Virus record (IMG/VR): IMGVR_UViG_3300009593_002680
Direction: 5' to 3' (one strand)
From: a virus
Length of the DNA: 64,000 nucleotides
Positions 2,052 through 42,493 of the stretch are shown here, piece by piece. The position numbers and the translations under genes are program-made. Numbering within the stretch: the first letter of the stretch is position 1; each line of letters opens with the position of its first letter. The notes beneath the pieces are model-generated. The model worked only from the letters and a program-made list of their open reading frames with translations, had not been told where the DNA came from and made no database searches.

Positions 2052-2090
2052 GAATTAGTTTTAATTCAAACTGCGAATAGCAGACATTTA

Positions 2091-2122
2091 AAAAGCACTT
2101 CCTTCGGGAGGTGCTTTTTTTT
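2091..2122 (+). terminator. Rho-independent terminator after gp23
   Basis: AAAAGCACTTCC-TTCG-GGAGGTGCTTTT stem with C(UUCG)G loop and T8 tract. Confidence 0.93.
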
Positions 2123-2139
2123 GATTTTATTCCCAATTA

Positions 2140-2147
2140 GATAAATA
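2140..2147 (+). promoter_or_regulatory. T4-type late promoter GATAAATA
   Basis: Motif 40 nt upstream of fibre gene 2187; recurs upstream of about 20 genes. Confidence 0.75.
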
Positions 2148-2186
2148 CAACTAAAGCAATTTATTATTGGCGGAAACACATTAACG

Positions 2187-5100: not shown

Positions 5101-7445
5101 GTGTTAAAGCATACGTTGATACACAACTAACAGCAGAAGACCTGGACTTCCAAGGAGACTCAGGCGGTGCATTAAGCATAGACTTAGATAGTGAAACATT
5201 AACTATTGCAGGTGGTAATGCAATTAGTACTTCAGGTGCTTCTAATACATTAACAGTAGCACTAGATAATACAGCAGTTACACCAGCAACTTATGGAGCC
5301 GCTGGATCAGTAGGCACATTTACAGTTGACCAACAAGGTAGATTAACTGGAGCGGCAACTACTGCCATTAATATTACAGCATCACAAGTTAGTGATTTTT
5401 CTGAAGCAGTAGATGATAGAGTAAACGTATTAGTATCAGGTGGTGCTAATATAACTGTAACATACGATGACGCCGCAGGTACATTTGTTATTGACAATGA
5501 CCTAGTAGGTGACGTAACAGGTATTGTTGCAGGAGATGGTTTAAGTGGCGGAGGATCAAGTGGTGATATTACAGTAAATGTTGATAGTACAGTTATAAGA
5601 ACTACCGGAGCACAAAGCATTGGTGGTGCTAAAACATTTACATCAGATATGGTTATATCCTCAACGGATGCCACTGATGCCGCAGGTCCACAATTACAAT
5701 TATATAGAAATAGTGCAAGTCCGGCAGACGCAGATTACTTAGGACAAATTGCATTCCAAGGTGAAAATGATGCAGGACAATCAACATTATTTGGAAAAAT
5801 TACAGGTAAAATTCTTGACGCATCAGATGGTTCAGAAGATGGTGGGTTTGAATTTGCGGCTCAAAAAGCAGGAACACAAACTATACTTGCTAGACTTAGG
5901 TCCAATAAATTAGAATTAATTAACAGCACAGGATTAGAAGTTGCAGGATTAACATATCCAACAGCAGATGGTAGTGCTAATCAGGTATTAACAACAGACG
6001 GTAGTGGTACTTTATCATTTGTTGATGTAAACACAATTGGTGGTACAGTTACAGGAGTTACTGCTGGTGATGGTATGACCGGTGGTGGTGTTTCAGGTAC
6101 AGTAGCACTTAATGTTGTAGGCGGTGATGGTATAGATGTAAATGCAGATAACATAGTAGCCAACGCAAGTTTCATAACCACTACAGTAGAAAATTATTTA
6201 GATGGTGGTAATGGCATTGTATTTGGTAGTGGTACTATTGATGTAGATACAACAGTTCTAAGAACAACTGGTGCACAAAGTGCCGCAGGTGTTAAAACAT
6301 TTACAAACGGCGTAACTATCCCTTCAGGTGGAACATTAACTGTAACAGATGCAACTATTACAGGTGCTAATACAGATAGCATTTCAGAAGGTTCAACTAA
6401 TTTATATTATACAGACGCAAGAGTTCAAGCAGTTAGTATTAACAATCTATCAGAAGATACAACTCCACAACTAGGTGGTAACTTAGATATAAACGGACAT
6501 AATATACTTTATGCTGATAACGAAAAAGCAATATTTGGTGATGGTCCTGATTTAGAAATCTACCATGATGGTGTTGACAGTTTCATTACAGACGTTGGTA
6601 CAGGAAGTATTAAAATACGTTCTGGTACAACATATATTACAAACGCCGCAGGAACAAAAACAAGTATAGCAACTAATTCAGGTGCAGGACAAACATTATA
6701 TTTTAATAATAGTCCAGTATTTGAAACAGTAAGTGGTGGTGCAAAAGTTACAGGTACATTAGAAGTTACAGGAAACTTTGTAACTGCCGACACAGATAAT
6801 TTAAGTGAAGGTTCAACTAACCTTTACTATACTGATGCAAGAGCAGATGCAAGAATTACTAAAGCGGCAATTGATGCCTTAAATGTAGATGCAGATACAT
6901 TAGATAGTTTAGACAGTACTGCTTTCTTAAGAGCAGATGCTAACGATTCACATACAGGTGATATTACACCTGCTTCAGATAATGCAGTTGATTTAGGAAC
7001 AGGCTCTTTAAGGTATGCGGAAATACATGCTGTTAGTTTTGAAGGAACGGCAACCTCGGCAAAATATGCGGATTTGGCAGAAAGATATTTGCCTGATGCA
7101 GACTATGGCGTAGGTACTGTAATGGTATTTGGTGGTAACAAAGAAGTAACACAATCAACTAAACAAAACTGCCCAAGCATAGCAGGTGTTGTTAGTACAG
7201 ACCCAGCATTTTTAATGAACAAAGATTTAGAAGGCGGCATAACATTAGCATTAAGAGGACGAGTTCCTGTTAAAGTTACTGGCGCAGTCAGAAAAGGAGA
7301 TGTACTAATTTGTAGTAACACTCCGGGCCACGCAGAAGCGGCACCGTTCAAAGGATATCACGTAACAGGACCTAGTATGATAGGTGTTGCAATCGGTGAA
7401 CATCTATCAACTGGAACGGGTGTTGTAGAAGCACAAATCAAGTAA
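2187..7445 (+). CDS. Long virion fibre protein (1752 aa; tail or head fibre)
   Basis: G/T/A/S/D-rich; GPYGSATTVPTYTVDAKGRLTAA-type repeats, EGSTNLYYTDAR repeats, C-terminal SAKYADLAERY...GRVPVKV domain typical of aquatic phage fibres; late promoter. Confidence 0.8.
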   Translation: MSKQSNFNPDENLVVFGNLLVHGTVTGKGNVVFNADTQTVNDADGYVINSDSDVAEAYLQINSNAGSNVQLLYSGNATANTLIVSQDTEISQDLNVAQSLNVVGNTTIGTTVITPNAYGSETGRIFGTRFTGIANTADKWQTGRTLTTTLTGDVAGSGSILIDGSGDVTLTVATTTVQANAVALGTDTTGAYVQSAQGVGNSNIIVASQGTDDGSDITIDLVDTTVTAGPYGSATTVPTYTVDAKGRLTAAANAVIDIPSSQINDFNTAITAFVSGGTGITEANGVITLDDTAVTAASYGSATAIPTFTVDAQGRLTAAADVNISVPSSQVNDFNTAISAYIQNGTYVTEANGVIDVTADVVTTDRNDTLTADYVYTGTTDFTGATFSAGAAATGITASANDNSTKLATTAYVQTELDDLIGGAPAQLDTLREITDSLNNSTSVSNTLVASIAAAEANIVTANNNLKTYTDTEKVDKDYEIQASYSFILGTKLANGLIVDGNNADLSNPNSANNAISFKNADDQQNIFINTKKYDHSYAVLHQGEQTISGNITSISGDGTTMTVTTTGAHRVRVAERYTIQNTNNAGAHGTFDVAATPNATSFTVAHTFNGNATGGDYFDSNPTADSQTRAGNLTVTGDLLIQRGIDGNASVDDQNNGAGTFTSVSNMRHVKSANATFAAGQTYSSNVRTIFYKTDLGSLSGSNTTVSATMISGSNILVLTGNADSTDTYLGSETVGTLNAVASYNAVEVGVPRAHYQNFGKSTTFIGDFGNVATYTSVFDLGTSAQYTTGQRPLERLTVDGALSLGARHTPANLLVNGTIFYDSSTNKLKGIQGNAVVDLIDATVTTLNLGDGTGDHALATLSGNTYYLRQLTAGTGIDSSVSAANVITITANSDNIRDIARGNLSATAGSVGYTNGTGQFSIPGTSDHITEGSTNLFYTDARADARITNAIKDEDNMASDSATHVPSQQSVKAYVDTQLTAEDLDFQGDSGGALSIDLDSETLTIAGGNAISTSGASNTLTVALDNTAVTPATYGAAGSVGTFTVDQQGRLTGAATTAINITASQVSDFSEAVDDRVNVLVSGGANITVTYDDAAGTFVIDNDLVGDVTGIVAGDGLSGGGSSGDITVNVDSTVIRTTGAQSIGGAKTFTSDMVISSTDATDAAGPQLQLYRNSASPADADYLGQIAFQGENDAGQSTLFGKITGKILDASDGSEDGGFEFAAQKAGTQTILARLRSNKLELINSTGLEVAGLTYPTADGSANQVLTTDGSGTLSFVDVNTIGGTVTGVTAGDGMTGGGVSGTVALNVVGGDGIDVNADNIVANASFITTTVENYLDGGNGIVFGSGTIDVDTTVLRTTGAQSAAGVKTFTNGVTIPSGGTLTVTDATITGANTDSISEGSTNLYYTDARVQAVSINNLSEDTTPQLGGNLDINGHNILYADNEKAIFGDGPDLEIYHDGVDSFITDVGTGSIKIRSGTTYITNAAGTKTSIATNSGAGQTLYFNNSPVFETVSGGAKVTGTLEVTGNFVTADTDNLSEGSTNLYYTDARADARITKAAIDALNVDADTLDSLDSTAFLRADANDSHTGDITPASDNAVDLGTGSLRYAEIHAVSFEGTATSAKYADLAERYLPDADYGVGTVMVFGGNKEVTQSTKQNCPSIAGVVSTDPAFLMNKDLEGGITLALRGRVPVKVTGAVRKGDVLICSNTPGHAEAAPFKGYHVTGPSMIGVAIGEHLSTGTGVVEAQIK

Positions 7446-7450
7446 CTTTC

Positions 7451-7458
7451 GATAAATA
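7451..7458 (+). promoter_or_regulatory. Late promoter GATAAATA
   Basis: Intergenic, upstream of second fibre gene. Confidence 0.75.
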
Positions 7459-7547
7459 CAGTTATAAAATGGCACAATGCCTTTTTGACTATGTTCAGAC
7501 GTGAACGTAGACTACACAAATTGTAGAACATATAGGAAGAATTAAAA

Positions 7548-10088
7548 ATGGCCACAGCAATTCAATGGAGACGAGGAACTACATCTCAACACAGTTCGTT
7601 TACTGGGTTAGTAGGTGAAATTACCGTCGATACAGATTTAGATACCCTTAGAGTCCACGATGGGTCAACAGCAGGTGGACACAGGCTAGCAAAATATTCA
7701 GAAATAGGAGACATTACAGCAGTTACGGCAGGTGACGGATTAAGCGGTGGTGGAACTTCTGGAGCATTAAGCATAGCCTTAGACTTAAACGAATTAACAG
7801 CGGCAACAGTAGCCGTAGATGCAGACAGCATAGCAATTATCGATGCAGGAGATAGTTCAAGTAAGAAAGAATCTATTGCAGACTTTGTAAGTGCAATAGC
7901 AGGATCAGGTTTATCAGCAAGTTCAGGACAATTAAGCATTTCAGAAACAGGCGACATTAGTGCCGTTACAGCAGGTGACGGTTTAAGTGGCGGCGGTTCA
8001 AGTGGTGCAGTATCACTTGCACTAGACTTAAACGAATTAACAGCCGCAACAGTTGATGTTGCAAATGATAGTATTGCAATTATCGATGCTGGTGACAGTA
8101 GTTCAAAGAAAGAAGCAATAGCAGATTTAGTATCAGCAATGGCAGGTACAAACTTAACAGCAACAAATGGTGTGTTAAGCACAACAGCAGATATAACAGG
8201 TGTTACTGCTGGTGATGGTTTATCAGGCGGTGGAACAAGTGGTGCATTAAGTTTAGCATTGGACTTAAACGAATTAACAGCGGCAACGGTAGACGTTGCA
8301 AACGATTTAATACCAATTATAGATGCATCAGATAATAGCACGAAGAAAGAATCATTAGCGGATATAGCCACAGCAATGGCAGGTACTGGTATAGATGCAT
8401 CAAGTGGTGTACTTGCAGTAGACAGTACAGTTGTTGTAACTACAGGAACACAAACTGTTGGCGGAAACAAAACATTTAGTAACGATATTGTAGTTACAGG
8501 TAACTTTACAGTTAATGGTACAACTACAACAATTAATACAGAAACGTTAGCATTAGAAGATAACAATATTGTACTTAACAATGGAACAAGTGGATCTCCA
8601 ACTGAAAACGCAGGTTTAACAGTTGATAGAGGATCAAGTACAGATGTAGTTTTGCAATTTAACGAAACTACTGATAAATGGCAATTTACAAATGATGGAT
8701 CAACATACTTTACTATAGCAACTAGCACAGACGAGTTAGCAGAAGGTTCAACTAACCTTTATTTTACAAATACTAGAGCAGATGCAAGAGCAGATGCCAG
8801 ATTTGCTGTTCAATTAGCGGCGTCTGATACAGGTGATTTAAGTGAAGGCAGTAACTTATACTATACAGATGAAAGAGTTATGGATAAAGTTGGTGCTAGA
8901 CTTTCTGGTTCAGGTAATATTAGTGTAACATATGATGATGCGGCAGATACTATTACAGTTTCTGAAGCATTAACAACTACAGACATTACTGAAGGCGATA
9001 ACTTATATTATACTAACGCAAGAGCAGACGCAAGAATAACAGCGGCATTAATTGATGAAGATGATTTATCAAGTGATAGTGCTACTAGACTTCCATCACA
9101 GCAATCAGTTAAAGCATACGTTGATGCTCAGGTGGCAGGTAAAGATAATACAGATGAAATTACAGAAGGTTCAAGTAACTTATACTTTACAAACGCAAGA
9201 GCAGATGCTAGAATTACAAACGCATTAGTTGATGAAGATAACATGGCATCTAATAGTGCTACTAAAGTTCCTTCACAGCAATCAGTTAAAGCATACGTTG
9301 ATGCACAAGTTGATACAGCAGATGCATTAAGTGAATTAAGTGGTGATTCAGATGACGTTACAGAAGGTTCAACAAACTTATTCTTCACAAATGCTAGAGC
9401 CCAAGCGGCAATCACAGTTACTGACGCAGGTGGAGATGGTAGTTTAGGATATAGTAGTGGAACAATTACTTACACAGGACCAGCCACCAATACCCTTATT
9501 GATGCAAGAGTAGATACTGCTTTTGTAAATGCATTAAACGTTAATGCTACAACATTAGACAGTATTGATAGTGGCAGTTTCTTAAGAAGCGATGCTAACG
9601 ACTCACATTCAGGTGATATTACACCTGGCTCAGATAATGCAGTTGACTTAGGAACAGGTTCTTTAAGATATGCAGAAATACATAGTGTTCTTTTTTCAGG
9701 TGTGGCTAGTTCGGCAAAATATGCGGATTTGGCTGAGAAATATACAACTGATGAAGAACTTGATGCAGGTACAGTAGTATGCTTCGGTGGTGAAGCAGAA
9801 ATTACTGCATGTGAACACGAATGTGACCATAGAGTTGCAGGTGTTATAAGTACTGATCCAGCATACATGATGAACAGCGAAGGCGAAGGTCAATACCTAG
9901 CACTAACAGGAAGAGTACCTACTAAGGTTACTGGTCCAGTTGCTAAAGGTGATTTACTAGTAAGCAGTTCTGTTAAAGGTCATGCTATGGTAGATAATAA
10001 CGCACAACCAGGTAGAATAATTGGTAAAGCAGTTGGTTCTAACGAGAGTGGAGAAGGTGTTATTGAAGTATTAGTTAATATGATGTAA
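7548..10088 (+). CDS. Virion fibre protein with Mtd_N-like N-terminal domain (846 aa)
   Basis: N-terminus QWRRGTTSQHSSFTGLVGEITVDTD...VHDGSTAGG; three ~80-aa repeats; EGSTNL repeats; C-terminal YADLAEKY domain paralogous to that of the 2187 gene. Confidence 0.82.
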   Translation: MATAIQWRRGTTSQHSSFTGLVGEITVDTDLDTLRVHDGSTAGGHRLAKYSEIGDITAVTAGDGLSGGGTSGALSIALDLNELTAATVAVDADSIAIIDAGDSSSKKESIADFVSAIAGSGLSASSGQLSISETGDISAVTAGDGLSGGGSSGAVSLALDLNELTAATVDVANDSIAIIDAGDSSSKKEAIADLVSAMAGTNLTATNGVLSTTADITGVTAGDGLSGGGTSGALSLALDLNELTAATVDVANDLIPIIDASDNSTKKESLADIATAMAGTGIDASSGVLAVDSTVVVTTGTQTVGGNKTFSNDIVVTGNFTVNGTTTTINTETLALEDNNIVLNNGTSGSPTENAGLTVDRGSSTDVVLQFNETTDKWQFTNDGSTYFTIATSTDELAEGSTNLYFTNTRADARADARFAVQLAASDTGDLSEGSNLYYTDERVMDKVGARLSGSGNISVTYDDAADTITVSEALTTTDITEGDNLYYTNARADARITAALIDEDDLSSDSATRLPSQQSVKAYVDAQVAGKDNTDEITEGSSNLYFTNARADARITNALVDEDNMASNSATKVPSQQSVKAYVDAQVDTADALSELSGDSDDVTEGSTNLFFTNARAQAAITVTDAGGDGSLGYSSGTITYTGPATNTLIDARVDTAFVNALNVNATTLDSIDSGSFLRSDANDSHSGDITPGSDNAVDLGTGSLRYAEIHSVLFSGVASSAKYADLAEKYTTDEELDAGTVVCFGGEAEITACEHECDHRVAGVISTDPAYMMNSEGEGQYLALTGRVPTKVTGPVAKGDLLVSSSVKGHAMVDNNAQPGRIIGKAVGSNESGEGVIEVLVNMM
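7707..8420 (+). repeat. Three tandem 79-81 aa coding repeats in the fibre gene
   Basis: Units begin at 7707, 7950 and 8187: (G/A)DI(T/S)xVTAGDGLSGGG(T/S)SGAxSxALDLNELTAATV...IIDA...SxKKE. Confidence 0.9.
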
Positions 10089-11364: not shown

Positions 11365-11431
11365 TATTTATCAAGAAAAAATTCCAAAATGCTATCCTCT
11401 ACCAAAAAAATTGGCAACTTTTGGATAAATA
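11365..11431. promoter_or_regulatory. Divergent late promoters (GATAAATA minus 11365-11372; GATAAATA plus 11424-11431)
   Basis: Exact motifs; the plus copy precedes the csgF/csgG cassette. Confidence 0.7.
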
Positions 11432-11505: not shown

Positions 11506-11802
11506 ATGAGTGAGATTTTCAAACTAATTGCGGAAGTCGGGTTTCCTATTGTCGGAGCATTGGTAATGGGTTACTTTATTTTCTTAACAATAAAGCAAAT
11601 GCTTGCCGGAGTGGTGGGCCAAATTCAGACACTTACTAAATTTTGCGTGATGTTGGAAGACAGAGCACGAACTATGAGTAACGAAATGATGAAAATTGAC
11701 TTATTAGTATCTAGTGCATTAGAATTGAGACCTGATATAGATAGAATAGCCCGAGCAGAAAATTTTATTGAAGACGGGAGTATCGACGCAAGGAGAGACT
11801 AG
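11506..11802 (+). CDS. Small membrane protein (YvrJ/holin-like), paralogue of the next gene
   Basis: N-terminal GFPIVGALVMGYFIF transmembrane segment, then coiled-coil with KIDLLV. Confidence 0.6.
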   Translation: MSEIFKLIAEVGFPIVGALVMGYFIFLTIKQMLAGVVGQIQTLTKFCVMLEDRARTMSNEMMKIDLLVSSALELRPDIDRIARAENFIEDGSIDARRD

Positions 11803-12108
11803 ATGGACATAGCAGGCTTAATATCTGATTACGGTTTTCCTGTAGTTGCATGTGTAGGTTTAGGTTACTTTATATACTATGTATGGAATTACATTGGAAC
11901 ACATGTGAAGCCAGAACTTGGAAAAATGCATATGGCATTAATCAAAGTTATTGACCAAACAAGGATGTTGGATCAAGATATGATAAGACTGCAACAAAAG
12001 GTTAATGTGGTTTTAGAATATAATGCTCGAAGAAAAGTTATCGAAGAGCATGAGGAGGAAGAAGCAGTTGAAGAACTGAAGATTCTTAAGGAGAAAAAAG
12101 GAAAATGA
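11803..12108 (+). CDS. Small membrane protein (YvrJ/holin-like), paralogue of the previous gene
   Basis: GFPVVACVGLGYFIYYVW transmembrane segment, then coiled-coil; zero-gap coupling to the upstream gene. Confidence 0.6.
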   Translation: MDIAGLISDYGFPVVACVGLGYFIYYVWNYIGTHVKPELGKMHMALIKVIDQTRMLDQDMIRLQQKVNVVLEYNARRKVIEEHEEEEAVEELKILKEKKGK

Positions 12109-12605
12109 ATAAAATCACAGGACGTATATTAGGTATTGGTGTAATGCTACTTTATTTTAGTAGCCAAACTGTATTTGCAGACCAACTTAAACATAAATTT
12201 AAGAACCCTAGTTTCAGTGGTATTGGTACTGGCGCTCATTACTTAACTATTGAGAATCAGGAAAAAAGTAGGAAAGATAAAATTAGGGATGATGTTGAAG
12301 CGGCTTTAAGAGCGGCAGATAGAGCAGAATCAAACAGTACTATCAATAAGTTTATTAGAAATCTGGAAAGCAGAATTTACAGTCAGATTTCTAAAGGATT
12401 GGTAGATAGTATGTTCTGTAACCCAGAAGAAGTACCAACTTGTACTAACTCAACCGAAGGTGCATTCTCTATTGAAGATAATGCAGTATCTTATCAAATT
12501 GTTACCATAGACGGAGTACAATATATTAGACTTACTATTGTAGATGTTGACGGTACAGTTACAGAAATTGAGATACCGATTGGTATCGGAACGTTAGGCG
12601 GGTAG
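12105..12605 (+). CDS. csgF: Curli assembly component CsgF-like
   Basis: Signal peptide followed by LKHKFKNPSFSG (compare CsgF MTFQFRNPNFGG); NKFIRNLESRIYSQ; directly upstream of csgG. Confidence 0.8.
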   Translation: MNKITGRILGIGVMLLYFSSQTVFADQLKHKFKNPSFSGIGTGAHYLTIENQEKSRKDKIRDDVEAALRAADRAESNSTINKFIRNLESRIYSQISKGLVDSMFCNPEEVPTCTNSTEGAFSIEDNAVSYQIVTIDGVQYIRLTIVDVDGTVTEIEIPIGIGTLGG

Positions 12606-12608
12606 ACA

Positions 12609-13589
12609 TTGAGAGTAGGATTTATAGCAGTATTATTTGCTTTGTTCATTAGTGGATGTGCTAGTGTCTCAATTCCTGGTGACAAACTTTGCGGAACGTC
12701 TTTACTTGAATGTATAGAAGAGCCAAAATTTGTAGAATTACCCACATATAAAAAATTAAGGAATTTGCCACCGGCAGAGGTTATGCCTGTGGTTGCAGTT
12801 TATAAATTTGAAGACTTAACTGGACAAAGATTTAGTTCAGATGGAGTTGCAAGTTTCAGCACCGCTGTTACACAAGGTGCAAAAGATTTATTAATAGATT
12901 CACTCAAAGCCGCAGGTGCTAAGGACGATCCTAAAGGCACATGGTTTAGAGTAGTAGAAAGAGGTTTAGGACTAGACAACTTGGTTAGAGAAAGACAGAT
13001 TGTTCGTAGTACTCGTGAACAGTTTGCTTCAGAAGAGAAACCAGCAGAAGGAGTCCAACCATTGTTATTTGCAGGTATGATATTAGAGGGAGGAGTCATT
13101 GGATATGACACTAATATTGAAACTGGAGGTAACGGTGCAAGATATCTCGGTATTGGTACAGCGAATCAATATCGAAGAGATAGTGTTGTAGTATCACTTA
13201 GAGCCGTTAGCACACTCACCGGCGAAGTGTTACTCAACGTACAGACATACAAAACCATTTTGAGTACTGGACAAGCCGGAGACGTATTTAGATTCCTAGA
13301 TATGGATACCAAGTTGCTTGAACTAGAAAGTGGTATGACAGAGAACGAAAGTGTAACGTGGGCAGTACGTTCGGCTATTGAAGCCGCAGTATTGGCACTT
13401 ATACAACAAGGCGATGAACGAGGTTATTGGAAAATTGTTTACCCTGAAGGGTGGGACGTACAGGAACTCTCTCCTGACGAACAAGCAACTTGGATGAAAG
13501 TAGACATAGATGAAGAGGACCTCAAAGCCGACAAAAAACTTTGGGAGAAAATGCTCCTGAAGAATAACGGAGAAAATAATGAAGACTAG
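12609..13589 (+). CDS. csgG: Curli secretion channel CsgG (outer-membrane lipoprotein)
   Basis: TTG start; lipobox ISGC; VAVYKFEDLTGQ, STAVTQGA, WFRVVER, LVRERQIVR, ILEGGVIGYDTN, RAVSTLTGEVL motifs. Confidence 0.95.
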   Translation: MRVGFIAVLFALFISGCASVSIPGDKLCGTSLLECIEEPKFVELPTYKKLRNLPPAEVMPVVAVYKFEDLTGQRFSSDGVASFSTAVTQGAKDLLIDSLKAAGAKDDPKGTWFRVVERGLGLDNLVRERQIVRSTREQFASEEKPAEGVQPLLFAGMILEGGVIGYDTNIETGGNGARYLGIGTANQYRRDSVVVSLRAVSTLTGEVLLNVQTYKTILSTGQAGDVFRFLDMDTKLLELESGMTENESVTWAVRSAIEAAVLALIQQGDERGYWKIVYPEGWDVQELSPDEQATWMKVDIDEEDLKADKKLWEKMLLKNNGENNED

Positions 13590-14397
13590 AAATTTATTTA
13601 GAAATTTTGCAATCAATGTCTTCGCGATTATGGGACTTACGGTTGGACTTTATGCTCCTGCCTTAGGTGCTGACGATAACGAAGTTTTATTGGACCAACA
13701 AGGGGATAATTTAACTTTGACCATATTACAGGCTGGTAGTGGTAACAAAATAACAGGTGATGCTTCTGATGGTAGTGATTTAGTCATTACTGGAGCAAAC
13801 TTGATTATTGATATTATCCAAGATGGTGATAGTAATGAAATATTTGGTGCATGGACTGGAGACGGTTCTGGTTCAACTGTTTGGGATTTATATTTCTTAG
13901 GAGATAGTAACTCAGTAGATATGAACATAGGTGCAACAGGTAGTGCAGATAGTGTTGATATGCTTTGGAATATTCAAGGTGATACTAACATATTTGATGT
14001 TGACATCGGTGGAGACCTTGCCGCAGACAACCTTAATATGGATTTAACAATACTAGGGGACAGAAACGACTTTAGAAGTGCTGTTAATAATACTAAAACT
14101 TGGGGTGGAACTCCAGGTTCTGGTTGGAACAGTACATCTGCTTTTTCACAAAGTGGTATTAAAGTTGATGCCGGTTCCGCAACTTGGGAAATGAACATTA
14201 CTGGTGATGATAATGCTATTACATCAAAACAAACTGGTAACTCTGACCACTACTTAAAATTTGTTTTAGTAGGTTCAGATGGTGATTTCCAGTTTTTACA
14301 AAGTAATGCGGCTACATGTAGTCCTGTATGTCCTGGTAAAATCGACGTTGATTTAGATAGTGAAAATGCATCAGTTAGTATCAGACAAACTGACTAA
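13579..14397 (+). CDS. Secreted curlin-like beta-solenoid protein 1
   Basis: Signal peptide ending ALGA; repeats such as NEVLLDQQGDNLTLTILQAGSGN, IIQDGDSNEI, NIQGDTNIF, ITGDDNAITSKQTGN. Confidence 0.75.
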   Translation: MKTRNLFRNFAINVFAIMGLTVGLYAPALGADDNEVLLDQQGDNLTLTILQAGSGNKITGDASDGSDLVITGANLIIDIIQDGDSNEIFGAWTGDGSGSTVWDLYFLGDSNSVDMNIGATGSADSVDMLWNIQGDTNIFDVDIGGDLAADNLNMDLTILGDRNDFRSAVNNTKTWGGTPGSGWNSTSAFSQSGIKVDAGSATWEMNITGDDNAITSKQTGNSDHYLKFVLVGSDGDFQFLQSNAATCSPVCPGKIDVDLDSENASVSIRQTD

Positions 14398-15571
14398 AGT
14401 TTGTTTATACGCATTTTTATTGTTTAGTGCAACATACAGTATTTCCGCCGGTGCCAATGAAAGTATCGGCGGAGTATTTGAGCAAAGTGGCTCACCTGGA
14501 AGTATTAAAAGGACGTCTGGTGACAAATTGATTGCAGAACTAGACACAGACATACAGAGCATGGACGAAGTTGAAACGATTGATGGTCGTATTAAACTAA
14601 AGTTTATAGATGACACACTAGTTAGTTTAACGGAACACACATACATGGTTATTAATGAATATGTGTACGATCCTGACCCCAGTAAAAGCAGGATGGCATT
14701 AGATTTCGTGCAAGGGACTGCACGATTTGCCACTGGCGGGTTAGGGTTAGTACCAAAAGAAAATATAACTGTAAAAACTCCTACTGCTACTATAGGTATT
14801 AGGGGAACCGACTTTACTACTACTGTAGATGAGTTGGGAAGAAGTTTGGTAATATTATTACCAGACCAAAGATGTACAGACGGAGTACGTTTAGAAGAAG
14901 GTTGTGCTCCAAGTGGTAGTATTACTATCACAAATGATGGTGGTGTACAAGTATTAACTGAAGCATTTCAGGCTGTAATGGTTAGTACATATGAACAAGC
15001 ACCAACTAATCCAGTTCTTCTTGCAGATTTGGATTTAAACATGATTGATAACATGTTTATTGTAAGTGAACCAACTGAGATTACAGAAGCAGTTGATGAA
15101 CAAGCAGAAGAATCAAAAGGAGATGGTGGATTATTAGACTTTGATGGATTAGATGCTAATGCCATTGAAGCAGATGTATTGAAAGATACAACAGAAGATT
15201 TAGAGTTTAGTCAGTTAGACATTAACTTCTTAGATGTAGATTTCTTACAAGATTTGTTAGAAATTATAGAAGAGGAAAGTGTAGAAGTAGGCGGAAAAAG
15301 TAAAAGTAAAGGCGGAGAAAATTCAGAAGGAAGTTTAGGAACCGATAAAATTACAGGAACTGCTTTAGGTTTTGATGACACAACGCAGTTTAATACTATT
15401 ACAGAAGATGGTAAAATATTCTTCTTTAGACAAGTAACTAATACAGTAAGTATTAAACAACAGTCAGGTAATAGTGCTAAAATCTTTATAGAAGATAGTA
15501 ACTTAAAAGACACCACAATATGTCTTAATGATTGCGAAGGAACATTTATAACAATTATACAGGTAGATTAG
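14360..15571 (+). CDS. FecR-domain periplasmic protein with acidic linker and curlin-like C-terminal tail
   Basis: Signal-like N-terminus; IKLKFIDDTLVSL, GTARFATG, VKTPTATIGIRGTDF FecR-type motifs; exact start uncertain (14360 or 14366). Confidence 0.8.
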   Translation: MKMHQLVSDKLTKVCLYAFLLFSATYSISAGANESIGGVFEQSGSPGSIKRTSGDKLIAELDTDIQSMDEVETIDGRIKLKFIDDTLVSLTEHTYMVINEYVYDPDPSKSRMALDFVQGTARFATGGLGLVPKENITVKTPTATIGIRGTDFTTTVDELGRSLVILLPDQRCTDGVRLEEGCAPSGSITITNDGGVQVLTEAFQAVMVSTYEQAPTNPVLLADLDLNMIDNMFIVSEPTEITEAVDEQAEESKGDGGLLDFDGLDANAIEADVLKDTTEDLEFSQLDINFLDVDFLQDLLEIIEEESVEVGGKSKSKGGENSEGSLGTDKITGTALGFDDTTQFNTITEDGKIFFFRQVTNTVSIKQQSGNSAKIFIEDSNLKDTTICLNDCEGTFITIIQVD

Positions 15572-16477
15572 ATGAAGTATATATTAGGAACATTATTAGC
15601 AATATTTTGTGCAACAGCAAGTTATGATGCATTTGCCGGTGAAGGACACAACCATGTTCATATAGACCAGGTTGGTGACGATTTAGTTTTAAATATTGAC
15701 CAACAAGGTAAAGACCAGCATATTGATTTGGACTTAGGATTACAATATGGCAATGTAGATAATTTAACTATGTGGATTGGGCAGTTGGGAGAAGACAATG
15801 AAGTTGAATTCTCTGTATCTGGAGATGGAAACTCTGTTAAAATTACGCAAGTAGGCGAGAAGCAATTTGCAGGATTTACAAGTACTTGGGGTAAAGTAAA
15901 TTGCCCTAATTCAACTTGGTGTGGAGACGTAGACGGCGTAGATAATGAAATAGAAATTAGTCAAAAATGTACAGAAGACAATAATTGTCGATATACTGAA
16001 GCAGGCTTTCACTTTTGGGGAGACAACAATTTAATGAGATGGGGTCAAGGTGTTGGACTTAACAACATAAATGATACAACATTTAGTCAAGGTGATGGTT
16101 CTGAGCATGGTGGTCATAAAGTTATATTAGATTATCATGGAGATAATAATGTTATTGTTGGATATCAAACAAACGGTAATACTAATACACCAGGCAGTCA
16201 TACTGCAAATATATGGATATATGGTGACGAACAAGACATTTGGTGGAAACAAATTAACGATGGAAACAAAACAGTAAACTATAAAAGTTATCAAGACTAT
16301 AGTCAAATAAGTGGAGTACAAAAAGGGAATGGTGCTCATAATGCCAATATAACTCTATATGGTACCCAACCAACAACGTTAAATTTAACACAAAATAGTG
16401 GCACAGCACAAAATTATAATTTAACTCAAACATGTGTAACCGTCGGTGGTTGCACTATCAATATAACACAAGATTAG
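15572..16477 (+). CDS. Secreted curlin-like beta-solenoid protein 2
   Basis: Signal peptide ending AFA; NHVHIDQVGDDLVLNIDQQG, IGQLGEDNEV, VSGDGNSVKITQVG, YHGDNNVIVGYQ repeats. Confidence 0.75.
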   Translation: MKYILGTLLAIFCATASYDAFAGEGHNHVHIDQVGDDLVLNIDQQGKDQHIDLDLGLQYGNVDNLTMWIGQLGEDNEVEFSVSGDGNSVKITQVGEKQFAGFTSTWGKVNCPNSTWCGDVDGVDNEIEISQKCTEDNNCRYTEAGFHFWGDNNLMRWGQGVGLNNINDTTFSQGDGSEHGGHKVILDYHGDNNVIVGYQTNGNTNTPGSHTANIWIYGDEQDIWWKQINDGNKTVNYKSYQDYSQISGVQKGNGAHNANITLYGTQPTTLNLTQNSGTAQNYNLTQTCVTVGGCTINITQD

Positions 16478-16484
16478 ATAAATA
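16477..16484 (+). promoter_or_regulatory. Late promoter GATAAATA
   Basis: Upstream of the 16526 gene. Confidence 0.7.
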
Positions 16485-16525
16485 ATTTCTGTAGGTAGAC
16501 AAGAATGACGTAGGAGGTCACTTGG

Positions 16526-16996
16526 ATGATTGAAGTCGCCGTAGCCATATCGATGGCTAGTCAGGCATTTACCGGAATCAAAAAAGCAGTAGAAATGGGT
16601 CGGGATATTGAAGATGTCACCGGGTATTTCGGTCGGTTTTTTGATGCCAGAGATGCAATTACAGAAGCAAATCAATACAGCAAAAATCCATCTTTAGCAA
16701 AAAAATATATGGCTGGTGGTAGTGTAGAAGCACAGGCTTTAGAAATTACAGCCGCAAAACATAAAATGGCACAACTTGAAAAAGAGTTGAGAGAGTATTT
16801 AATCTATACAGGACAGCAAAATTTTTACGAAGATATGATGCGTGAAAGACGTGTCATTAGACAAGCCAGATTAATGGAGGCTAAACGTAAAGCAGAAAGT
16901 AAAAAATTTGCAATAGATGTAACAGCAGTAGTATGTTTATGTATTGTTATTTTTGCGGTAGTCATGATGACAGTAAGCATTATAGCCGGACGATAA
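16526..16996 (+). CDS. Hypothetical protein with C-terminal transmembrane helix (156 aa)
   Basis: AGGAGG RBS; helical body; C-terminal hydrophobic VTAVVCLCIVIFAVVMMTVSII. Confidence 0.75.
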   Translation: MIEVAVAISMASQAFTGIKKAVEMGRDIEDVTGYFGRFFDARDAITEANQYSKNPSLAKKYMAGGSVEAQALEITAAKHKMAQLEKELREYLIYTGQQNFYEDMMRERRVIRQARLMEAKRKAESKKFAIDVTAVVCLCIVIFAVVMMTVSIIAGR

Positions 16997-16999
16997 ATA
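16992..16999 (+). promoter_or_regulatory. Late promoter GATAAATA (leaderless start of the cyclase gene)
   Basis: ATG 17005 lies 6 nt after the motif end. Confidence 0.7.
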
Positions 17000-17004
17000 C
17001 ATGC

Positions 17005-18870
17005 ATGAAGTGGTTATACAGTGGTTGGGCAGTTGTGGTAACAATCTGTTTACTCACGACAGTAAAAATATTAGATCCTACGCCTATACAAAGTCTACGA
17101 CTACAAACGTTCGATGCTTTACAACTATTAGACGAGCCAAAACAAAGTGATGAAATTGTTATTATTAATGTTGGCGAGAAAAGTTTACAACAATGGGGAC
17201 AATGGCCATGGCCCAGACAGAATTTTGCCCAGGTAATTCACGACATCAGACAGAAGAATGGTGGTATCATTGGCTTGACCGTGATGTTCCCCGAGACGGA
17301 CCGATTTGGCGGAGACGAAACTTTAGCAAGTTGGATGAAAGGAAACGGCATAGTTTTAAGCCAGACACCTTCAACGAAGGGGATAAGGAGTTCAGGCCCG
17401 CACATTGGAACAGGCACGATAGGACCTTTGAACCCGACCCAATCTTTGCTAAAGTGGCCCAATCTCGTAACAAACGTTTCTATCCTTGAAGAACAAGCAG
17501 AGGGTATTGGAGTACTTGCTTCAGCACCACAACCAGATTTAGTTACAAGAACTTACCCATTAGCAATAACAGTAAATGAAAAAATTTACCCTAGTTTTGC
17601 TATTGAGATGTTAAGAACATATACACAAAAACCAAGTTATATGTTAAAGACATCTGAGATAGGAATACAAGAATTTGCAGTACCACCTTTTGATCCTATA
17701 GTAACACAACCAATTGGAACAGCATTTATACGTTTTAATAACACCTTTGAAGAAGTAGAATATGTGGATATAAACAGTCTACCAGACCTAGGTGGCAAGT
17801 TTATTATACTAGGTGTTACAGCAGAAGGTGTTCAAAACCCTGTTCCTACTCCAAAAGGACTTATGTATCCACAGCATATACAGGGCCATATGCTACAGAA
17901 TTTTATAGATGGATCAAATATACAGCGAAACGAATTAAGTGCTTTATACGAGCTCTTAGGAGCCCTGTTGGGTATGATATTGATTGCTTTTGCTGTTTAT
18001 AAGTTACCTTTACTGTGGACAGCACCTATTTCCATGCTAATTTTGGGTACAGAAGCCTATGGAAGTGTGTGGTTTTACACAAATCACCTAGTGTTAATGG
18101 ACGCAACTTTCCCGGTAATTAGTGGATTTTTAGTGTTTACCCAGAGTGCTTTTAACAATTTTTACAAGCAATACAAGTTAAGACAGCAAATAAAAGGACA
18201 ATTTGGCACATATATTTCACCTGACTATGTAGATATGATAGTAAAAGATCCAAGTTTAATGAAGTTAGGCGGAGAAAGAAAAGAGATGAGTTTCTTATTT
18301 GCAGATATAGTCGGCTTTACTCCTATATCAGAGCAGTATATGAAGAATGATGACCCTGAAGGATTAGTAGAATTAATCAATAGTTTCTTAGATAAGATGA
18401 CAAACATAGTATTAGCCAACGGTGGAACGATAGATAAGTTCATGGGCGACTGTATAATGGCATTTTGGAATGCACCAATACCATGTGAAAATCATGCAGA
18501 GATGGCAGTTAAAACTGCAATAGAAATTGAATTACTTGGTGATGAATTAGAAAAAGAAATGGAAAAATTAGGATTGCCTAGAGTTAAATTTGGTACAGGT
18601 GTAAACACAGGTACATGTATTGTTGGTAATATGGGTGCTGAAACTAGATTAGATTATAGTGTTGTAGGCGATGCTGTAAACTTAGGTGCTAGATTAGAAG
18701 CCGAGACTAGAAAACAAGACACTCCTATCTTATTGAGTGAATTTACATACATGCAACTTACGGATATTGCATGTCGTGAACTCGATGAAGTTACTGTAAA
18801 AGGAAAAGAGGAGCCTGTAAAAATTTATGCTCCGCTGTTCGATGGTGAAATAAGAAAACTTTACAAATAA
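17005..18870 (+). CDS. CHASE2-domain class III adenylyl cyclase (start moved to MKWLYSGW)
   Basis: N-terminal TM; CHASE2 motifs IVIINVGEKSLQQWGQWPWPRQ and TPKGLMYPQHIQ; three TMs; catalytic FADIVGF, DKFMGD, GNMG, DYSVVGDAVNLGARLE (K/D adenine-specifying residues). Confidence 0.93.
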   Translation: MKWLYSGWAVVVTICLLTTVKILDPTPIQSLRLQTFDALQLLDEPKQSDEIVIINVGEKSLQQWGQWPWPRQNFAQVIHDIRQKNGGIIGLTVMFPETDRFGGDETLASWMKGNGIVLSQTPSTKGIRSSGPHIGTGTIGPLNPTQSLLKWPNLVTNVSILEEQAEGIGVLASAPQPDLVTRTYPLAITVNEKIYPSFAIEMLRTYTQKPSYMLKTSEIGIQEFAVPPFDPIVTQPIGTAFIRFNNTFEEVEYVDINSLPDLGGKFIILGVTAEGVQNPVPTPKGLMYPQHIQGHMLQNFIDGSNIQRNELSALYELLGALLGMILIAFAVYKLPLLWTAPISMLILGTEAYGSVWFYTNHLVLMDATFPVISGFLVFTQSAFNNFYKQYKLRQQIKGQFGTYISPDYVDMIVKDPSLMKLGGERKEMSFLFADIVGFTPISEQYMKNDDPEGLVELINSFLDKMTNIVLANGGTIDKFMGDCIMAFWNAPIPCENHAEMAVKTAIEIELLGDELEKEMEKLGLPRVKFGTGVNTGTCIVGNMGAETRLDYSVVGDAVNLGARLEAETRKQDTPILLSEFTYMQLTDIACRELDEVTVKGKEEPVKIYAPLFDGEIRKLYK

Positions 18871-19100: not shown

Positions 19101-19742
19101 TTATTCGTCTGGATTGTATATTCTAAATTCTGTGAACAATTTGGCATATTCAAGCAAATCTTGTCTTAATGTTTGCAAGTGTTTTATTTCCATTGGCATT
19201 TTAAAATTAGCAACACTATATATAGGCATATAGTAATTTAAAATCTTATCTACTTTTTCTCTATCTTTAATTATGTCTTGTATAACTCTATGATAAAAAT
19301 TAGGCTCTGTAATTAATTGACTTAACCAAACATGATGGTCATCATGCGAGTTATATGCGTAAGCCATTTCCCTAATGTCATAGGTTATTGCTCTTACAGG
19401 ATTTATATTTGCTCTATATTTTTTCATCACAGGTGGATACATCCACTTCTCATGACGAGTGTGTTGATTTCTTAAAAATGCTTTATACTCATTTAAAAAA
19501 CTTTTATATAAACCTTCTTCACTTTGCTTGACTTCAACATTATAATGTTCAATCAATTCATCTGCAATTTTTTGTGCTTTCGAAGATAAGTCATCGTACA
19601 ATTCTCTTACATCAAGTATTGTATATGTGCCATCAAAGAATGTATTTGGGATTGCCTTGTGTCGTTTATATTTGTTTAGTTCAGTTGTAAGTTTTATAGC
19701 ATCAAAATTAATAATATCTTTTGACATGCTATTACTTATCAC
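19101..19742 (-). CDS. Hypothetical protein
   Basis: 213-aa ORF coupled to the upstream Nudix gene; start could be 19727. Confidence 0.7.
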   Translation of the reverse strand: MISNSMSKDIINFDAIKLTTELNKYKRHKAIPNTFFDGTYTILDVRELYDDLSSKAQKIADELIEHYNVEVKQSEEGLYKSFLNEYKAFLRNQHTRHEKWMYPPVMKKYRANINPVRAITYDIREMAYAYNSHDDHHVWLSQLITEPNFYHRVIQDIIKDREKVDKILNYYMPIYSVANFKMPMEIKHLQTLRQDLLEYAKLFTEFRIYNPDE

Positions 19743-20290
19743 ATATTGATTTTAAGTATAGTGTGCAGTTTACCAGTGCCTTTATTACGTCCTAGTGTAC
19801 TTCTTGCTCCATCATGCAATGGTTTGGGCCACTGTCCTATGTCTACCCAAGCATACCCACAACTCTCATCATTTAGTGTAGGTTGAAATTCTTTATCTAC
19901 TACATAGCAAAAACTGTAATACATAAAATTTTTGTCTTTGCTTTGATATACGTCTAATGGATTTAATTTTTTAAGTTCAGGAACAAGACCAATTTCTTCT
20001 GATAGTTCTCTTTGTAAGGCTTCATAAGGAGTTTCTATTCCTTCTATCATGCCTCCCCAAAATCCCCAAGTATGTTTTTGTCTTTTATCTGAATTGCGTA
20101 GTTGGAATAAACATCTACCTGTGTCTTTTGCTAAAAACAAAACACCTGCGGCACTAATGCCCTTATGTTTATTAAGATTGGTCAAAGGATTTAATTTTTC
20201 TATAATGCTCTTTTCTTCTAGATGTTGATTTTCCAGAACCCTGGGTTGTACGTCCCTTCGTAAGTGCTTGTCCACGTTTCGTTTTTCCAT
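19739..20290 (-). CDS. Nudix hydrolase
   Basis: Nudix box GGMIEGIETPYEALQRELSEEIG; start uncertain (overlaps gp15 by 73 nt). Confidence 0.88.
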   Translation of the reverse strand: MEKRNVDKHLRRDVQPRVLENQHLEEKSIIEKLNPLTNLNKHKGISAAGVLFLAKDTGRCLFQLRNSDKRQKHTWGFWGGMIEGIETPYEALQRELSEEIGLVPELKKLNPLDVYQSKDKNFMYYSFCYVVDKEFQPTLNDESCGYAWVDIGQWPKPLHDGARSTLGRNKGTGKLHTILKINM

Positions 20291-21663
20291 TGATACTGTT
20301 TTCCTGTAAATGTGTTTGTGACATAATGTACAGCCGTAACAGCCGATGCATCGAATACTTTAGTCCATGCACTACCGTTATACTCAATTATGTCATTGTA
20401 GTCTGCAGATATTCCCCAATTGTCTCCGGAAATCTCTGATGTAAGTAAATATCTTTGTCCATTTGTGGCGGCGGCTAATGTACCATCGCCTGGATAACTT
20501 GCTGTAGGATCAATAATTTTTGTTAAACTTGTTAATGTATTAGTTGGCAATGTATCACTGTCAATAGTGAATACTAATTTGCTTGGGTCTATACTATTTC
20601 TTGCAATAAATCCACTAATAAGACTAGTTGTTGAATCTATATCGTTTGAAATATTTAATTGTAATGTACTTCCTGTTGTTAAAGGTATATCACTCATTGT
20701 AACACTTGCATTAGACAACGTACCTTTATCTCCTTGCGGAGCAATAACTTCTAATAAATCATTCCAATTTGCTTTTGTTGTTTCACCATCATCATAACTA
20801 GTACCTTCTGTAGGTCCTGTTTTAAATAATGTTGCTTCTGTACCATTCATTTCTAAATAGTAATTGTTTGGACTTACAGTATGTAACTCAAATTGTGAAT
20901 CAACTGTTCTAAAGAAGTCGTATATATCTTCATCATAACCTAAATCTTGTACATTTGATGTATCGTAAATATTAGTTATAATTGTATTAATAATTTTTTG
21001 TCTTTGTACTTTTGCAGGTGGACTTAACCAGATAGGTAAAGTAAATGTTAGGGTGGCAACGTCTATTGTTTCATCGACGCCTGCTGGCATACTTCTATTT
21101 GACCAATTTACATCTGTAAGTTCCACTTCAAAAATACTAGTCCAATCTAAAGGATTGGAAGAGTGTTGTAATTGAATACTTGGATTAAACAAGATTAATA
21201 CTTGTTCTAACAGTTGTAATTTTTGGTCTGTATTTCCAGTCCAAATGTCTACTTGCATTGTTAAATTGTACGGAACTGGCATATATCTATCTGTGCTGTA
21301 TAAGTTACCTGGAAAACTTTGTGAATCACTACCCGTTTTATATTGACTAGTACCACTATCATATTGTCTTTCTGCAACTTGTACTTTACTAATTAACATA
21401 GGATCTTGAGCCCTATCTCTTGCTAGTAATAAACTGTTAATGCTACATGCTATAAAAGGAGTAGAGTTAACCATGTTTTCACTACCCTTTCTCATAATAT
21501 GTCCTACCATTCTTTGCATGTCTGCATATCTTACAGGAACTTTATTATAGTATGTTGCACCATCACGTTTACCTTCTGACACTTTAAAGTCATTAAAAAT
21601 CCTCATGAATTGCATCAAGTATCTTCTTAATTGTGCGTCATACCAGTAATCTAAATTAGCCAT
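20218..21663 (-). CDS. gp15: Tail sheath terminator/stabiliser, T4 gp15-like, with C-terminal extension
   Basis: YWYDAQLRRYLMQFMRIF, VPVRYAD, PVPYNLTMQVDIWT, QLLEQVLILFNP; follows gp14. Confidence 0.8.
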   Translation of the reverse strand: MANLDYWYDAQLRRYLMQFMRIFNDFKVSEGKRDGATYYNKVPVRYADMQRMVGHIMRKGSENMVNSTPFIACSINSLLLARDRAQDPMLISKVQVAERQYDSGTSQYKTGSDSQSFPGNLYSTDRYMPVPYNLTMQVDIWTGNTDQKLQLLEQVLILFNPSIQLQHSSNPLDWTSIFEVELTDVNWSNRSMPAGVDETIDVATLTFTLPIWLSPPAKVQRQKIINTIITNIYDTSNVQDLGYDEDIYDFFRTVDSQFELHTVSPNNYYLEMNGTEATLFKTGPTEGTSYDDGETTKANWNDLLEVIAPQGDKGTLSNASVTMSDIPLTTGSTLQLNISNDIDSTTSLISGFIARNSIDPSKLVFTIDSDTLPTNTLTSLTKIIDPTASYPGDGTLAAATNGQRYLLTSEISGDNWGISADYNDIIEYNGSAWTKVFDASAVTAVHYVTNTFTGKQYQWKNETWTSTYEGTYNPGFWKINI

Positions 21664-22694
21664 TAGTTATCTGCCTTAGGTTTAACTGCTTTACTGAGGT
21701 TTGTTTTCTCAACTTGAGTTGTACCATCTGTGTTTGTTGTAATATTATCATTATTAATAAAGGAAGTAAGTATTTTATTAGCGGCACTCCAAGCCTTCTT
21801 GTTGTCATCGCTAATTTTAATCCATCTACTTCCAGACTTCTTAAATAATCTATGAGGTTCAAAATCTGTTCTCAAGAAATAATCTCCGTTGTTTGATCCT
21901 ATTGGGAATGAATCTCCACTTCCAACAATACTTATGCCGTTAGGTGCAGAGCCATCTCCTGGGAAGTACACACCTGGCTTATCTACACTGGTTTCATCTA
22001 CATATAAATGACCACCTTCAAAGTTTCCAGCATCATATTGAACTTCAGCATTGGCAACTGCCATAACTTTGTCGCTAACTTCAATTTCTGTTTTGTATGT
22101 ACTAAGAACATTTCTTAAATCAGTTGCAGTTTCTCCAGTACCAAGAATATCTCTGTATTCTGGACTGTCTGTAATGTTAGTTAATTTACATCTCCATAAG
22201 TGGGGCCACCATCTAGGATCATATCCTTCTGCTGGTCTGCCACAATCACTTACTACAAAGAATCTATTAACTGCTTCACCACCACCTAAAAGTAAATCAT
22301 CTCTTAAATGTGGTAGTTCTAAAACATCACCTGCCATTAACCTTCTGCCAAGTAAACTTGCACATGAGTTCATGTGGAAAGTCATATACAAACTATCGTT
22401 AGATAAAAACATACCAAATTGTGTTAAATCAAAATCTGGTTCTGCTATATTATATGCTCCACGTAGTTCGTAAATGTCTGGGTCGTATTTTCTATCTCTG
22501 TTTTCTAAGAATATAACGTCTTGTATATACAAGTCGCCACTACCAATACTGGCTGTTGAGTCATCAGTATATGTGCCTATGTATTTGTGTACATAGACTC
22601 CTGTGCCGCCGGCATTGATACTTTCTGCTACAACTCTATCTATAAAGCCGTAGTCATTAGTTTTGTTCTTGTTCCACAGTTGTAATCTTGGCAT
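21663..22694 (-). CDS. gp14: Neck protein, T4 gp14-like
   Basis: DVIFLENRDRKYD, FDLTQFGMFL, GDVLELPHL, WWPHLWRCK; late promoter upstream. Confidence 0.78.
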   Translation of the reverse strand: MPRLQLWNKNKTNDYGFIDRVVAESINAGGTGVYVHKYIGTYTDDSTASIGSGDLYIQDVIFLENRDRKYDPDIYELRGAYNIAEPDFDLTQFGMFLSNDSLYMTFHMNSCASLLGRRLMAGDVLELPHLRDDLLLGGGEAVNRFFVVSDCGRPAEGYDPRWWPHLWRCKLTNITDSPEYRDILGTGETATDLRNVLSTYKTEIEVSDKVMAVANAEVQYDAGNFEGGHLYVDETSVDKPGVYFPGDGSAPNGISIVGSGDSFPIGSNNGDYFLRTDFEPHRLFKKSGSRWIKISDDNKKAWSAANKILTSFINNDNITTNTDGTTQVEKTNLSKAVKPKADN

Positions 22695-42488: not shown

Positions 42489-42493
42489 GCAGT

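Follow-up and report, generated by a model that had tools for sequence, protein, structure and literature searches.

In the 64,000-nt viral DNA IMGVR_UViG_3300009593_002680 from IMG/VR (the whole of this stretch is called the window here), nine open reading frames (ORFs) on the plus strand between positions 11506 and 18870 encode, among others, a curli secretion pore, two curlin-like proteins, a FecR-domain protein and a CHASE2 class III adenylate cyclase. This cassette is, near certainly, one more copy of the viral curli (type VIII secretion system, T8SS) plus FecR plus cyclase module of pelagiphages and OM43 phages. By sequence comparison, it appears to be a fusion, specific to phages, that joined a curli set to a FecR/CHASE2 cyclase pair of the NsrA/CyaK type. 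What we add to the published module is the kinship of this pair to NsrA and CyaK, a curlin-type tail on the FecR protein, and the observation that the two halves of the module lie separately in sampled cells. The reading we tentatively favour, and to which we give somewhat less than an even chance, is envelope-spanning signalling, in which the state of the curli pore or fibre would be read via FecR by the CHASE2 cyclase.

Curli genes in such phages were reported in 2020 by Zaragoza-Solas et al. (PMC7029224) and in 2022 by Buchholz et al. (PMC9004378), so that csgF and csgG alone are, as the initial annotation had noted, not new in marine T4-like phages. A complete viral T8SS module has also been published, consisting of one or two small 'HK' genes, CsgF, CsgG, CsgA/B, FecR, a second CsgA/B and adenylate cyclase (PMC9599517). 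In this work, Wittmers et al. 2022 describe the module in myo- and podo-pelagiphages, give statistics on its co-occurrence, detect it in metatranscriptomes, assign it an alphaproteobacterial origin, call FecR and cyclase putative regulators, and find the module at all 65 surveyed stations, where it makes up about 0.1% of viral proteins (PMC9599517). Since the whole module including FecR and cyclase was already published, its novelty is low. In the Pelagibacter phage HTVC008M (KC465899) and the Methylophilales phage Melnitz (MZ577097), both the gene set and its order are the same, and FecR and cyclase are annotated in their GenBank entries. The hosts are without curli genes, and the function of the module has been termed a mystery (PMC7029224, PMC9004378).

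The coordinates and spacing of all nine genes agree with the initial annotation. The first seven ORFs abut or overlap (11506-11802, 11803-12108, 12105-12605, 12609-13589, 13579-14397, 14360-15571 and 15572-16477), and a 48-nt gap separates them from the gene of a 156-aa protein (16526-16996), which is followed by the cyclase gene. The domain calls for the pair of small membrane proteins, CsgF, CsgG, the curlins, FecR, the 156-aa membrane protein and the CHASE2 cyclase are upheld; in PHROGs, seven of the nine proteins fall into phage families of unknown function. Reading the translations, a signal peptide or lipobox is visible in CsgF, CsgG, both curlins and FecR. The CsgF-like secreted protein (166 aa, 12105-12605; Pfam CsgF E 4e-11, phrog_35372 E 4e-39) has an F-K-N-P-S-F motif near its mature N-terminus and returned zero matches among PDB sequences. 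Its gene adjoins that of the CsgG outer-membrane lipoprotein (326 aa, 12609-13589; lipobox ISGC; Pfam CsgG E 8e-46) on the same strand, and residues 44-276 of CsgG match the solved structures of the nonameric E. coli CsgG pore with E 1.6e-43. Curlin-like protein 1 (272 aa, 13579-14397) reaches 24.2 bits against Pfam Curlin_rpt, for which the cut-off is 20.7 bits, and it contains repeated short strands, a Cys pair and the C-terminus SIRQTD. Its structure is predicted to be all-beta with a predicted template modelling score (pTM) of 0.68, and a fold search of this model against the PDB gave only weak beta-helix rows with E > 0.1. Curlin-like protein 2 (301 aa, 15572-16477), which ends in CVTVGGCTINITQD, stays just below the cut-off with 20.5 bits; it is homologous to the curlin-like 1 family in hhalign (99.7%, E 1.6e-25), and the two are paralogs. 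No match to CsgE, CsgC or CsgD was found by Pfam among the nine cassette proteins, and CsgE has been reported absent from these viral modules (PMC9599517).

Between the two curlin genes lies the gene for the FecR-domain protein (403 aa, 14360-15571; Pfam FecR E 6e-9). The AlphaFold2 (AF2) model, with a mean predicted local distance difference test (pLDDT) of 71.7, consists of a signal helix, a beta domain, a disordered linker and a second beta domain. The FecR/PupR-like beta domain is confidently predicted for residues 35-208 (nt 14462-14983), and structure comparison aligns it with the PupR signalling domain 6ovk_R at Z 14.9. The linker spans residues 225-323 (nt 15032-15328) and is acidic, with 30 D+E versus 5 K+R over residues 225-325. 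It is followed by a confident C-terminal beta domain of about 80 residues (nt 15329-15568), which closes with the curlin-type strand ITIIQVD. Pfam at E<=0.1 and the AF2 model give no anti-sigma domain in the FecR protein, with only a signal-like helix of about 30 residues in front of the FecR domain, and Pfam finds no TPR repeats in it. All 120 matches listed by a search with the protein are phage-like metagenome proteins, so that bacterial proteins lay beyond its reach. These features bear on the proposal in the literature that an ungated curli pore imports nutrients or cofactors, FecR hinting at iron (PMC7029224, PMC9599517). The cassette does lack a detectable CsgE gate; however, the FecR protein is without an anti-sigma N-terminal domain, the closest cellular FecR relatives pair with CHASE2 cyclases and not with iron transporters, and the curlin substrates argue for export. 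We consider import very improbable.

The C-terminal strand links the FecR protein to the curlins. A strand of the form hydrophobic-x-hydrophobic-x-Q plus one to three residues is common to the three secreted proteins, as SIRQTD in curlin 1, TIIQVD in FecR and NITQD in curlin 2. In its strict form, the motif terminates 47/47 FecR, 38/39 curlin 2 and 19/50 curlin 1 relatives, most other curlin 1 tails having a longer stretch past the Q, at a background rate of 1.7% among 1300 C-termini. Within the window, it marks exactly three of 84 ORFs, namely curlin 1, FecR and curlin 2, and cellular alphaproteobacterial curlins encoded beside csgG have the identical type of terminus. The FecR protein has therefore acquired a curlin-type terminus, which ties it to the secretion genes, and it is plausible from the sequences that this tail serves as a tether of the FecR protein to pore or fibre. 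The same strand can be read differently, as a dock by which FecR would serve as a periplasmic adaptor or gate for CsgG in place of the missing CsgE, with the cyclase separately raising host cyclic AMP (cAMP). The shared motif could then be a pore recognition tag, the position of FecR between two substrates is constant, and CsgE is lacking both here and in the published modules. This reading is rather improbable in our judgement; the FecR fold is a signalling domain, and FecR domains partner CHASE2 sensors in several bacterial lineages without curli genes nearby.

The frame of the CHASE2 class III adenylate cyclase (Pfam CHASE2 E 2e-36, Guanylate_cyc E 1e-18) is open from 16933, and the likely start is the ATG at 17005 (MKW...), 8 nt past the stop codon of the 156-aa gene, which gives a protein of 621 aa (17005-18870). 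Its topology comprises a transmembrane helix, a periplasmic CHASE2 domain, a transmembrane region and the catalytic domain, with hydrophobic segments at residues 4-28 and 310-342. The metal-binding aspartates are D434 and D482; the adenine lysine K478 is found in IDKFMGD, and the transition-state residues N559 and R563 lie in VNLGARLE. All five residues are invariant or nearly so among 43 relatives. The active site described in the initial annotation is thus present in its two metal Asp, Lys, Asn and Arg residues, while the specificity pair has to be corrected from Lys/Asp to Lys/Ser. The second specificity position is Ser552 (DYSVVGD), the same as in CyaK, whereas P. aeruginosa CyaB has Thr. 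The protein matches the structure of P. aeruginosa CyaB (3r5g) with E 2e-35 and is 47% identical to CyaK across the catalytic domain (E 1e-55), and the CHASE2 N-terminus aligns with CyaK as well. Judged by its residues, the catalytic set is complete, and cAMP synthesis is predicted.

Kinship to a cellular pair is seen for both partners. The neighbour that abuts cyaK on S. meliloti pSymB codes for a 1190-aa protein, in which TPR repeats are combined with an N-terminal FecR domain (E 1.8e-15); the phage FecR protein aligns co-linearly with the first 240 residues of this FecR-domain protein (E 3e-7). Position and length of the pSymB gene product fit NsrA, and from these we tentatively take the gene to be nsrA. 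NsrA is an outer-membrane protein of S. meliloti that is genetically needed for the perception of an outside signal by CyaK. Published clusters show related arrangements: in Campylobacterota, a FecR outer-membrane protein is encoded with TPR, phosphodiesterase and CHASE2 cyclase genes (PMC9239204), and in Burkholderia/Pseudomonas, an operon combines LysM-FecR with a CHASE2 histidine kinase (PMC5192318). Two small low-GC alphaproteobacteria encode a FecR protein of 830-918 aa, whose linker is long and acidic, among TolC-, ABC- and HlyD-type genes, and they have a CHASE2 cyclase and genes for cyclic nucleotide monophosphate (cNMP)-binding proteins about 6-9 kb from the FecR gene. FecR and CHASE2 thus recur together in cells without curli genes nearby, on pSymB, in Ensifer, in the low-GC alphaproteobacteria and in the published clusters. 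Because the phage pair aligns with a pair of the NsrA/CyaK type and such FecR plus CHASE2 clusters have been published, a functional link between FecR and CHASE2 is suggested for the phage proteins.

Several of these cellular loci have neighbours of their own. On the Ensifer plasmid (L206:798-10896), TPR and FecR genes are divergent from the CHASE2 cyclase gene, whose product, among plasmid proteins, matches the phage cyclase best over the full length; the locus is flanked by genes for an NHLP-type bacteriocin exporter, a cNMP-binding protein and an MBL-fold hydrolase. One small low-GC alphaproteobacterium has an HlyD-type secretion protein with a fused cNMP-binding domain (L202:16358-18088, minus strand) adjoining the CHASE2 cyclase, and a stand-alone cNMP-binding gene is located nearby (L202:13091-13558, minus strand). 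This arrangement is a hint that, in this bacterium, the neighbouring FecR protein may be exported by type I secretion under the control of cAMP. Scanning genome contigs with the cyclase as query gave three Variovorax loci and one locus in an alphaproteobacterial metagenome-assembled genome. Around a Variovorax CHASE2 cyclase (L163:8348-13008) lie genes for a PP2C phosphatase, an FHA protein and a protein resembling class II phosphodiesterases, and no FecR gene; some CHASE2 cyclases therefore have no FecR partner nearby.

The curli half is found in cells on its own. A phage-like CsgG, 44-51% identical to the phage protein, is encoded in 7 of 401 sampled Alphaproteobacteria, and neither FecR nor cyclase lies within 10 kb of any of these curli loci (0/7), in accordance with Wittmers et al. 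(PMC9599517). The coupling is therefore specific to phages with respect to the sampled cells. The initial annotation had named independent assortment of csgFG and the FecR and cyclase genes as an outcome that would refute the proposed circuit; outside phages, independent assortment is what the sampled Alphaproteobacteria show.

Within phages, csgG, FecR and cyclase genes are linked. In a tblastn survey with the nine cassette proteins across 160 viral loci, FecR and curlin 1 were present in each of the 45 CsgG loci that extend 4.5 kb or more downstream, and 43 of them have curlin 2. The cyclase is present in 41 of 43 CsgG loci with at least 5 kb downstream; the exceptions are L007 and L006, and for the latter a longer locus of the same contig carries the cyclase further downstream. 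Conversely, every one of the 14 cyclase loci that reach 5 kb or more upstream has FecR, and FecR and cyclase are on the same strand in all loci examined. Small membrane proteins 1 and 2 occur in 73/73 related loci. The gene order is the same in relatives that are only 35-39% identical and lie on other phage-like contigs, and the representatives followed up are mostly on such contigs. Among cultured phages, the carriers of CsgG are the same set as the carriers of this cyclase. These loci show a stable module; being related to one another, they are no proof of function.

The distance from FecR start to cyclase start ranges from 1.7 to 8.3 kb with a median of 2.3 kb, so the slot 5' of the cyclase accepts inserts and is an insertion hot spot. 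The contig of L006 has about 6 kb of other genes in the interval from curlin 2 to cyclase (L120:1882-9001), and in L168 a DUF4337 membrane protein occupies this slot. In the window, it holds the gene of the 156-aa protein (16526-16996), which has a hydrophobic C-terminal membrane helix at residues 125-156 and matches phrog_32327 with E 1.5e-7. The initial annotation had counted this protein as a part of the module. It occurs in only three of about 160 related loci (L108, L141 and L142) and is therefore not a conserved core member; it is a passenger in the variable slot.

The mechanism that we tentatively favour would connect these parts as follows. Late in infection, the phage would install the CsgG/CsgF pore in the host outer membrane and export the two curlin paralogs. 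The curlin-type strand at the C-terminus of FecR would engage the pore or the fibre, its acidic disordered linker would run through the channel, and the folded N-terminal FecR domain would remain periplasmic. There, CHASE2 of the inner-membrane cyclase would read the FecR domain, so that the state of pore or fibre would set cytoplasmic cAMP synthesis. The target of cAMP would probably be host-encoded. We infer each of these steps, from the engagement of the tail with pore or fibre and the periplasmic placement of the FecR domain to the reading by CHASE2 and the resulting cAMP. Of the single trans-envelope circuit put forward in the initial annotation, the parts are real and linked in phages, and the FecR-CHASE2 link is backed by S. 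meliloti, Campylobacterota and Burkholderiales; the two halves are separate in cells. The roles of this circuit suggested there, in lysis timing, superinfection sensing or the aggregation of infected cells, are speculative.

A number of observations weigh against the envelope-spanning circuit. FecR-CHASE2 contact, export of the FecR C-terminus, fibre formation and cAMP output are all parts that we infer. Beyond the last ~8 residues, the C-terminal domain of FecR has no significant hhalign match to curlin profiles. The phage FecR protein has neither the TPR region nor a beta-barrel as in NsrA, with the acidic linker and the curlin-type tail instead, so the NsrA analogy extends over the N-terminal domain only. 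Searching the window by phmmer with three bacterial queries, which is a weak test, gave no cNMP-binding protein, and PF00027 gave none in five related cassette-bearing phage genomes. Joint occurrence inside a single phage lineage does not count as independent evidence. Between curlin 2 and the cyclase, inserts reach up to about 6 kb, so that the cyclase is not always within the same tight operon, and podophage modules are often without cyclase and second curlin (PMC9599517), which makes the cyclase dispensable for part of the family.

The last two points also favour the published reading (PMC7029224, PMC9599517), in which curli-like fibres on infected cells serve aggregation ('sibling capture') or a block of superinfection, and FecR and cyclase are loose regulators or independent auxiliary genes, the pore having no physical relay to the cyclase. 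The complete CsgG/CsgF pair and the two curlin paralogs with signal peptides and repeats are what such fibres would require. However, cultures with Melnitz showed no clumping (PMC9004378), and fibres alone leave unexplained why FecR lies between the curlins in every locus and has a curlin-type C-terminus, and why unrelated bacteria, too, combine FecR with CHASE2. We regard fibres with loosely attached regulators as unlikely.

Beyond the envelope-spanning reading of the cassette, a general role of FecR domains is conceivable. FecR domains would be the protein ligands of CHASE2 sensors, with FecR forming the periplasmic foot of a protein that is held in or beyond the outer membrane. The outer end would be held by the protein's own barrel in NsrA, by a type I secretion channel, or by the phage curli pore via the curlin-type tail. 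This generalization is possible, if on the doubtful side. Work on this cassette bears on the question of what CHASE2 domains sense (PMC5192318). Under this generalization, the phage version would be a virus-encoded sensor across the envelope, which would signal the surface state of the infected cell through cAMP, be it fibre growth, contact or a second phage. Very abundant ocean phages of SAR11 and OM43 carry the module, and the NsrA/CyaK kinship and the curlin-type tail of FecR together give a testable model.

The cassette starts with two small membrane proteins. The first (98 aa, 11506-11802) has an N-terminal hydrophobic helix with a GFPI motif followed by a coiled-coil-like tail; it matches phrog_18771 with E 1e-25 and, weakly, the holin family phrog_4898 with E 5e-5. 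The second (101 aa, 11803-12108; phrog_18771 E 6e-25) is its paralog. Pfam shows no histidine-kinase domain in either protein even at E<=10, and because the first has no Pfam match at all at this threshold, we assign no such domain to it. The weak holin match bears on the proposal made for Melnitz from structure modelling and neighbouring genes (PMC9004378) that the CsgG/CsgF pore serves to time lysis, in the manner of a gated secretin or a pinholin, with the other genes as accessories. Motifs suggesting late expression would also suit lysis. An outer-membrane pore, however, is unable to depolarise the inner membrane, FecR and the two conserved curlin paralogs that are secreted would be left without explanation, and the cassette here lies among tail genes and not beside thyX or ssrA as in Melnitz. 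We give a lysis device very little credence.

Late-promoter-like motifs of the sequence GATAAATA precede three of the genes on the plus strand: at 11424-11431, 81 nt 5' of the first cassette gene; at 16477-16484, 48 nt 5' of the 156-aa gene; and at 16992-16999, overlapping the stop codon of the 156-aa gene and 12 nt 5' of the cyclase ATG. The initial annotation had called them T4-type late motifs. The motifs are present and well placed; they read GATAAATA and not TATAAATA. Under the T4-type criterion applied, an exact TATAAATA about 10 nt 5' of the transcript start, neither TATAAATA nor CTAAATA is found at any of the three sites. ATAAATA has no overall excess in the window, with 23 copies versus 33 expected. 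Of its 18 plus-strand copies, 13 sit 10-110 nt 5' of plus-strand starts (binomial P 5e-10), a zone that covers 10% of the window, and the sites 5' of the cassette and of the 156-aa gene conform to this placement. As judged from placement, it is plausible that the GATAAATA sites are late promoters. The ATAAATA core lies exactly 12 nt 5' of an ATG at three places (16993-17007, 42482-42496 and 44035-44049); if these are late promoters, the resulting mRNAs would be nearly leaderless.

Marine RNA-library contigs contain near-identical pieces of the first small gene, csgF, csgG, curlin 1, FecR and curlin 2, which fits the published metatranscriptome detection; such contigs cannot prove transcription. 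They barely reach the cyclase, and they can neither rank genes nor show absence. One contig (window 11434-11640) starts a few bases past the GATAAATA at 11424-11431, which is a hint only, as contigs cannot show transcript starts. The upstream flank of the cassette (912-10088) encodes a major head protein and two large tail-fibre-like proteins of 1752 and 846 aa, both of which have a C-terminal phrog_19602 domain in common. Downstream (19101-22694), NUDIX, tail-sheath and structural genes follow on the minus strand.

Compared to known systems, the cassette is closest in gene order to the viral T8SS module, its proteins being 25-50% identical to those of HTVC008M and Melnitz. It differs from these two phages by the extra 156-aa membrane protein before the cyclase and by its location between tail-fibre and tail-sheath genes, whereas theirs lies between ssb and tape-measure/baseplate genes. 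The published description (PMC9599517) labels the two small proteins histidine kinases, while Pfam shows no kinase domain here, and it makes no mention of a CHASE2 domain, which the cyclase of the window has. With the E. coli curli system (CsgG/CsgF/CsgA/CsgB/CsgE), the cassette shares CsgG, CsgF and curlin repeats; in contrast to E. coli, its curlins are of an alphaproteobacterial type with a Cys pair and the hydrophobic-x-hydrophobic-x-Q terminal strand.

For the FecR protein, the N-terminal domain has the same periplasmic signalling fold as in FecA/FecR/FecI and PupB/PupR. Unlike these systems, it is preceded by a signal peptide and not by a cytoplasmic anti-sigma domain, and the output would be a cyclase instead of a sigma factor. 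Type I secreted proteins such as LapA and MpIBP have a similar layout of folded N-terminal domain, long linker and exported C-terminal part, which we take as an analogy only; a cellular FecR protein of that layout is encoded close to a CHASE2 cyclase, with type I secretion genes around it. The similarity of the FecR protein to the 'cell surface anchoring domain' 5ix9 (Z 7.1) is within the range of chance, and the secretion system differs. The clusters of Campylobacterota and of Burkholderia/Pseudomonas resemble the cassette in placing a secreted or periplasmic FecR-domain protein beside a CHASE2 sensor, but they contain no curli genes, their output domain may be a kinase, and no phage is involved. 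NsrA/CyaK likewise sets a FecR-domain gene beside a CHASE2 class III cyclase, and here the phage proteins align with both partners; the outer-membrane element of the phage system would come separately, from CsgG/CsgF.

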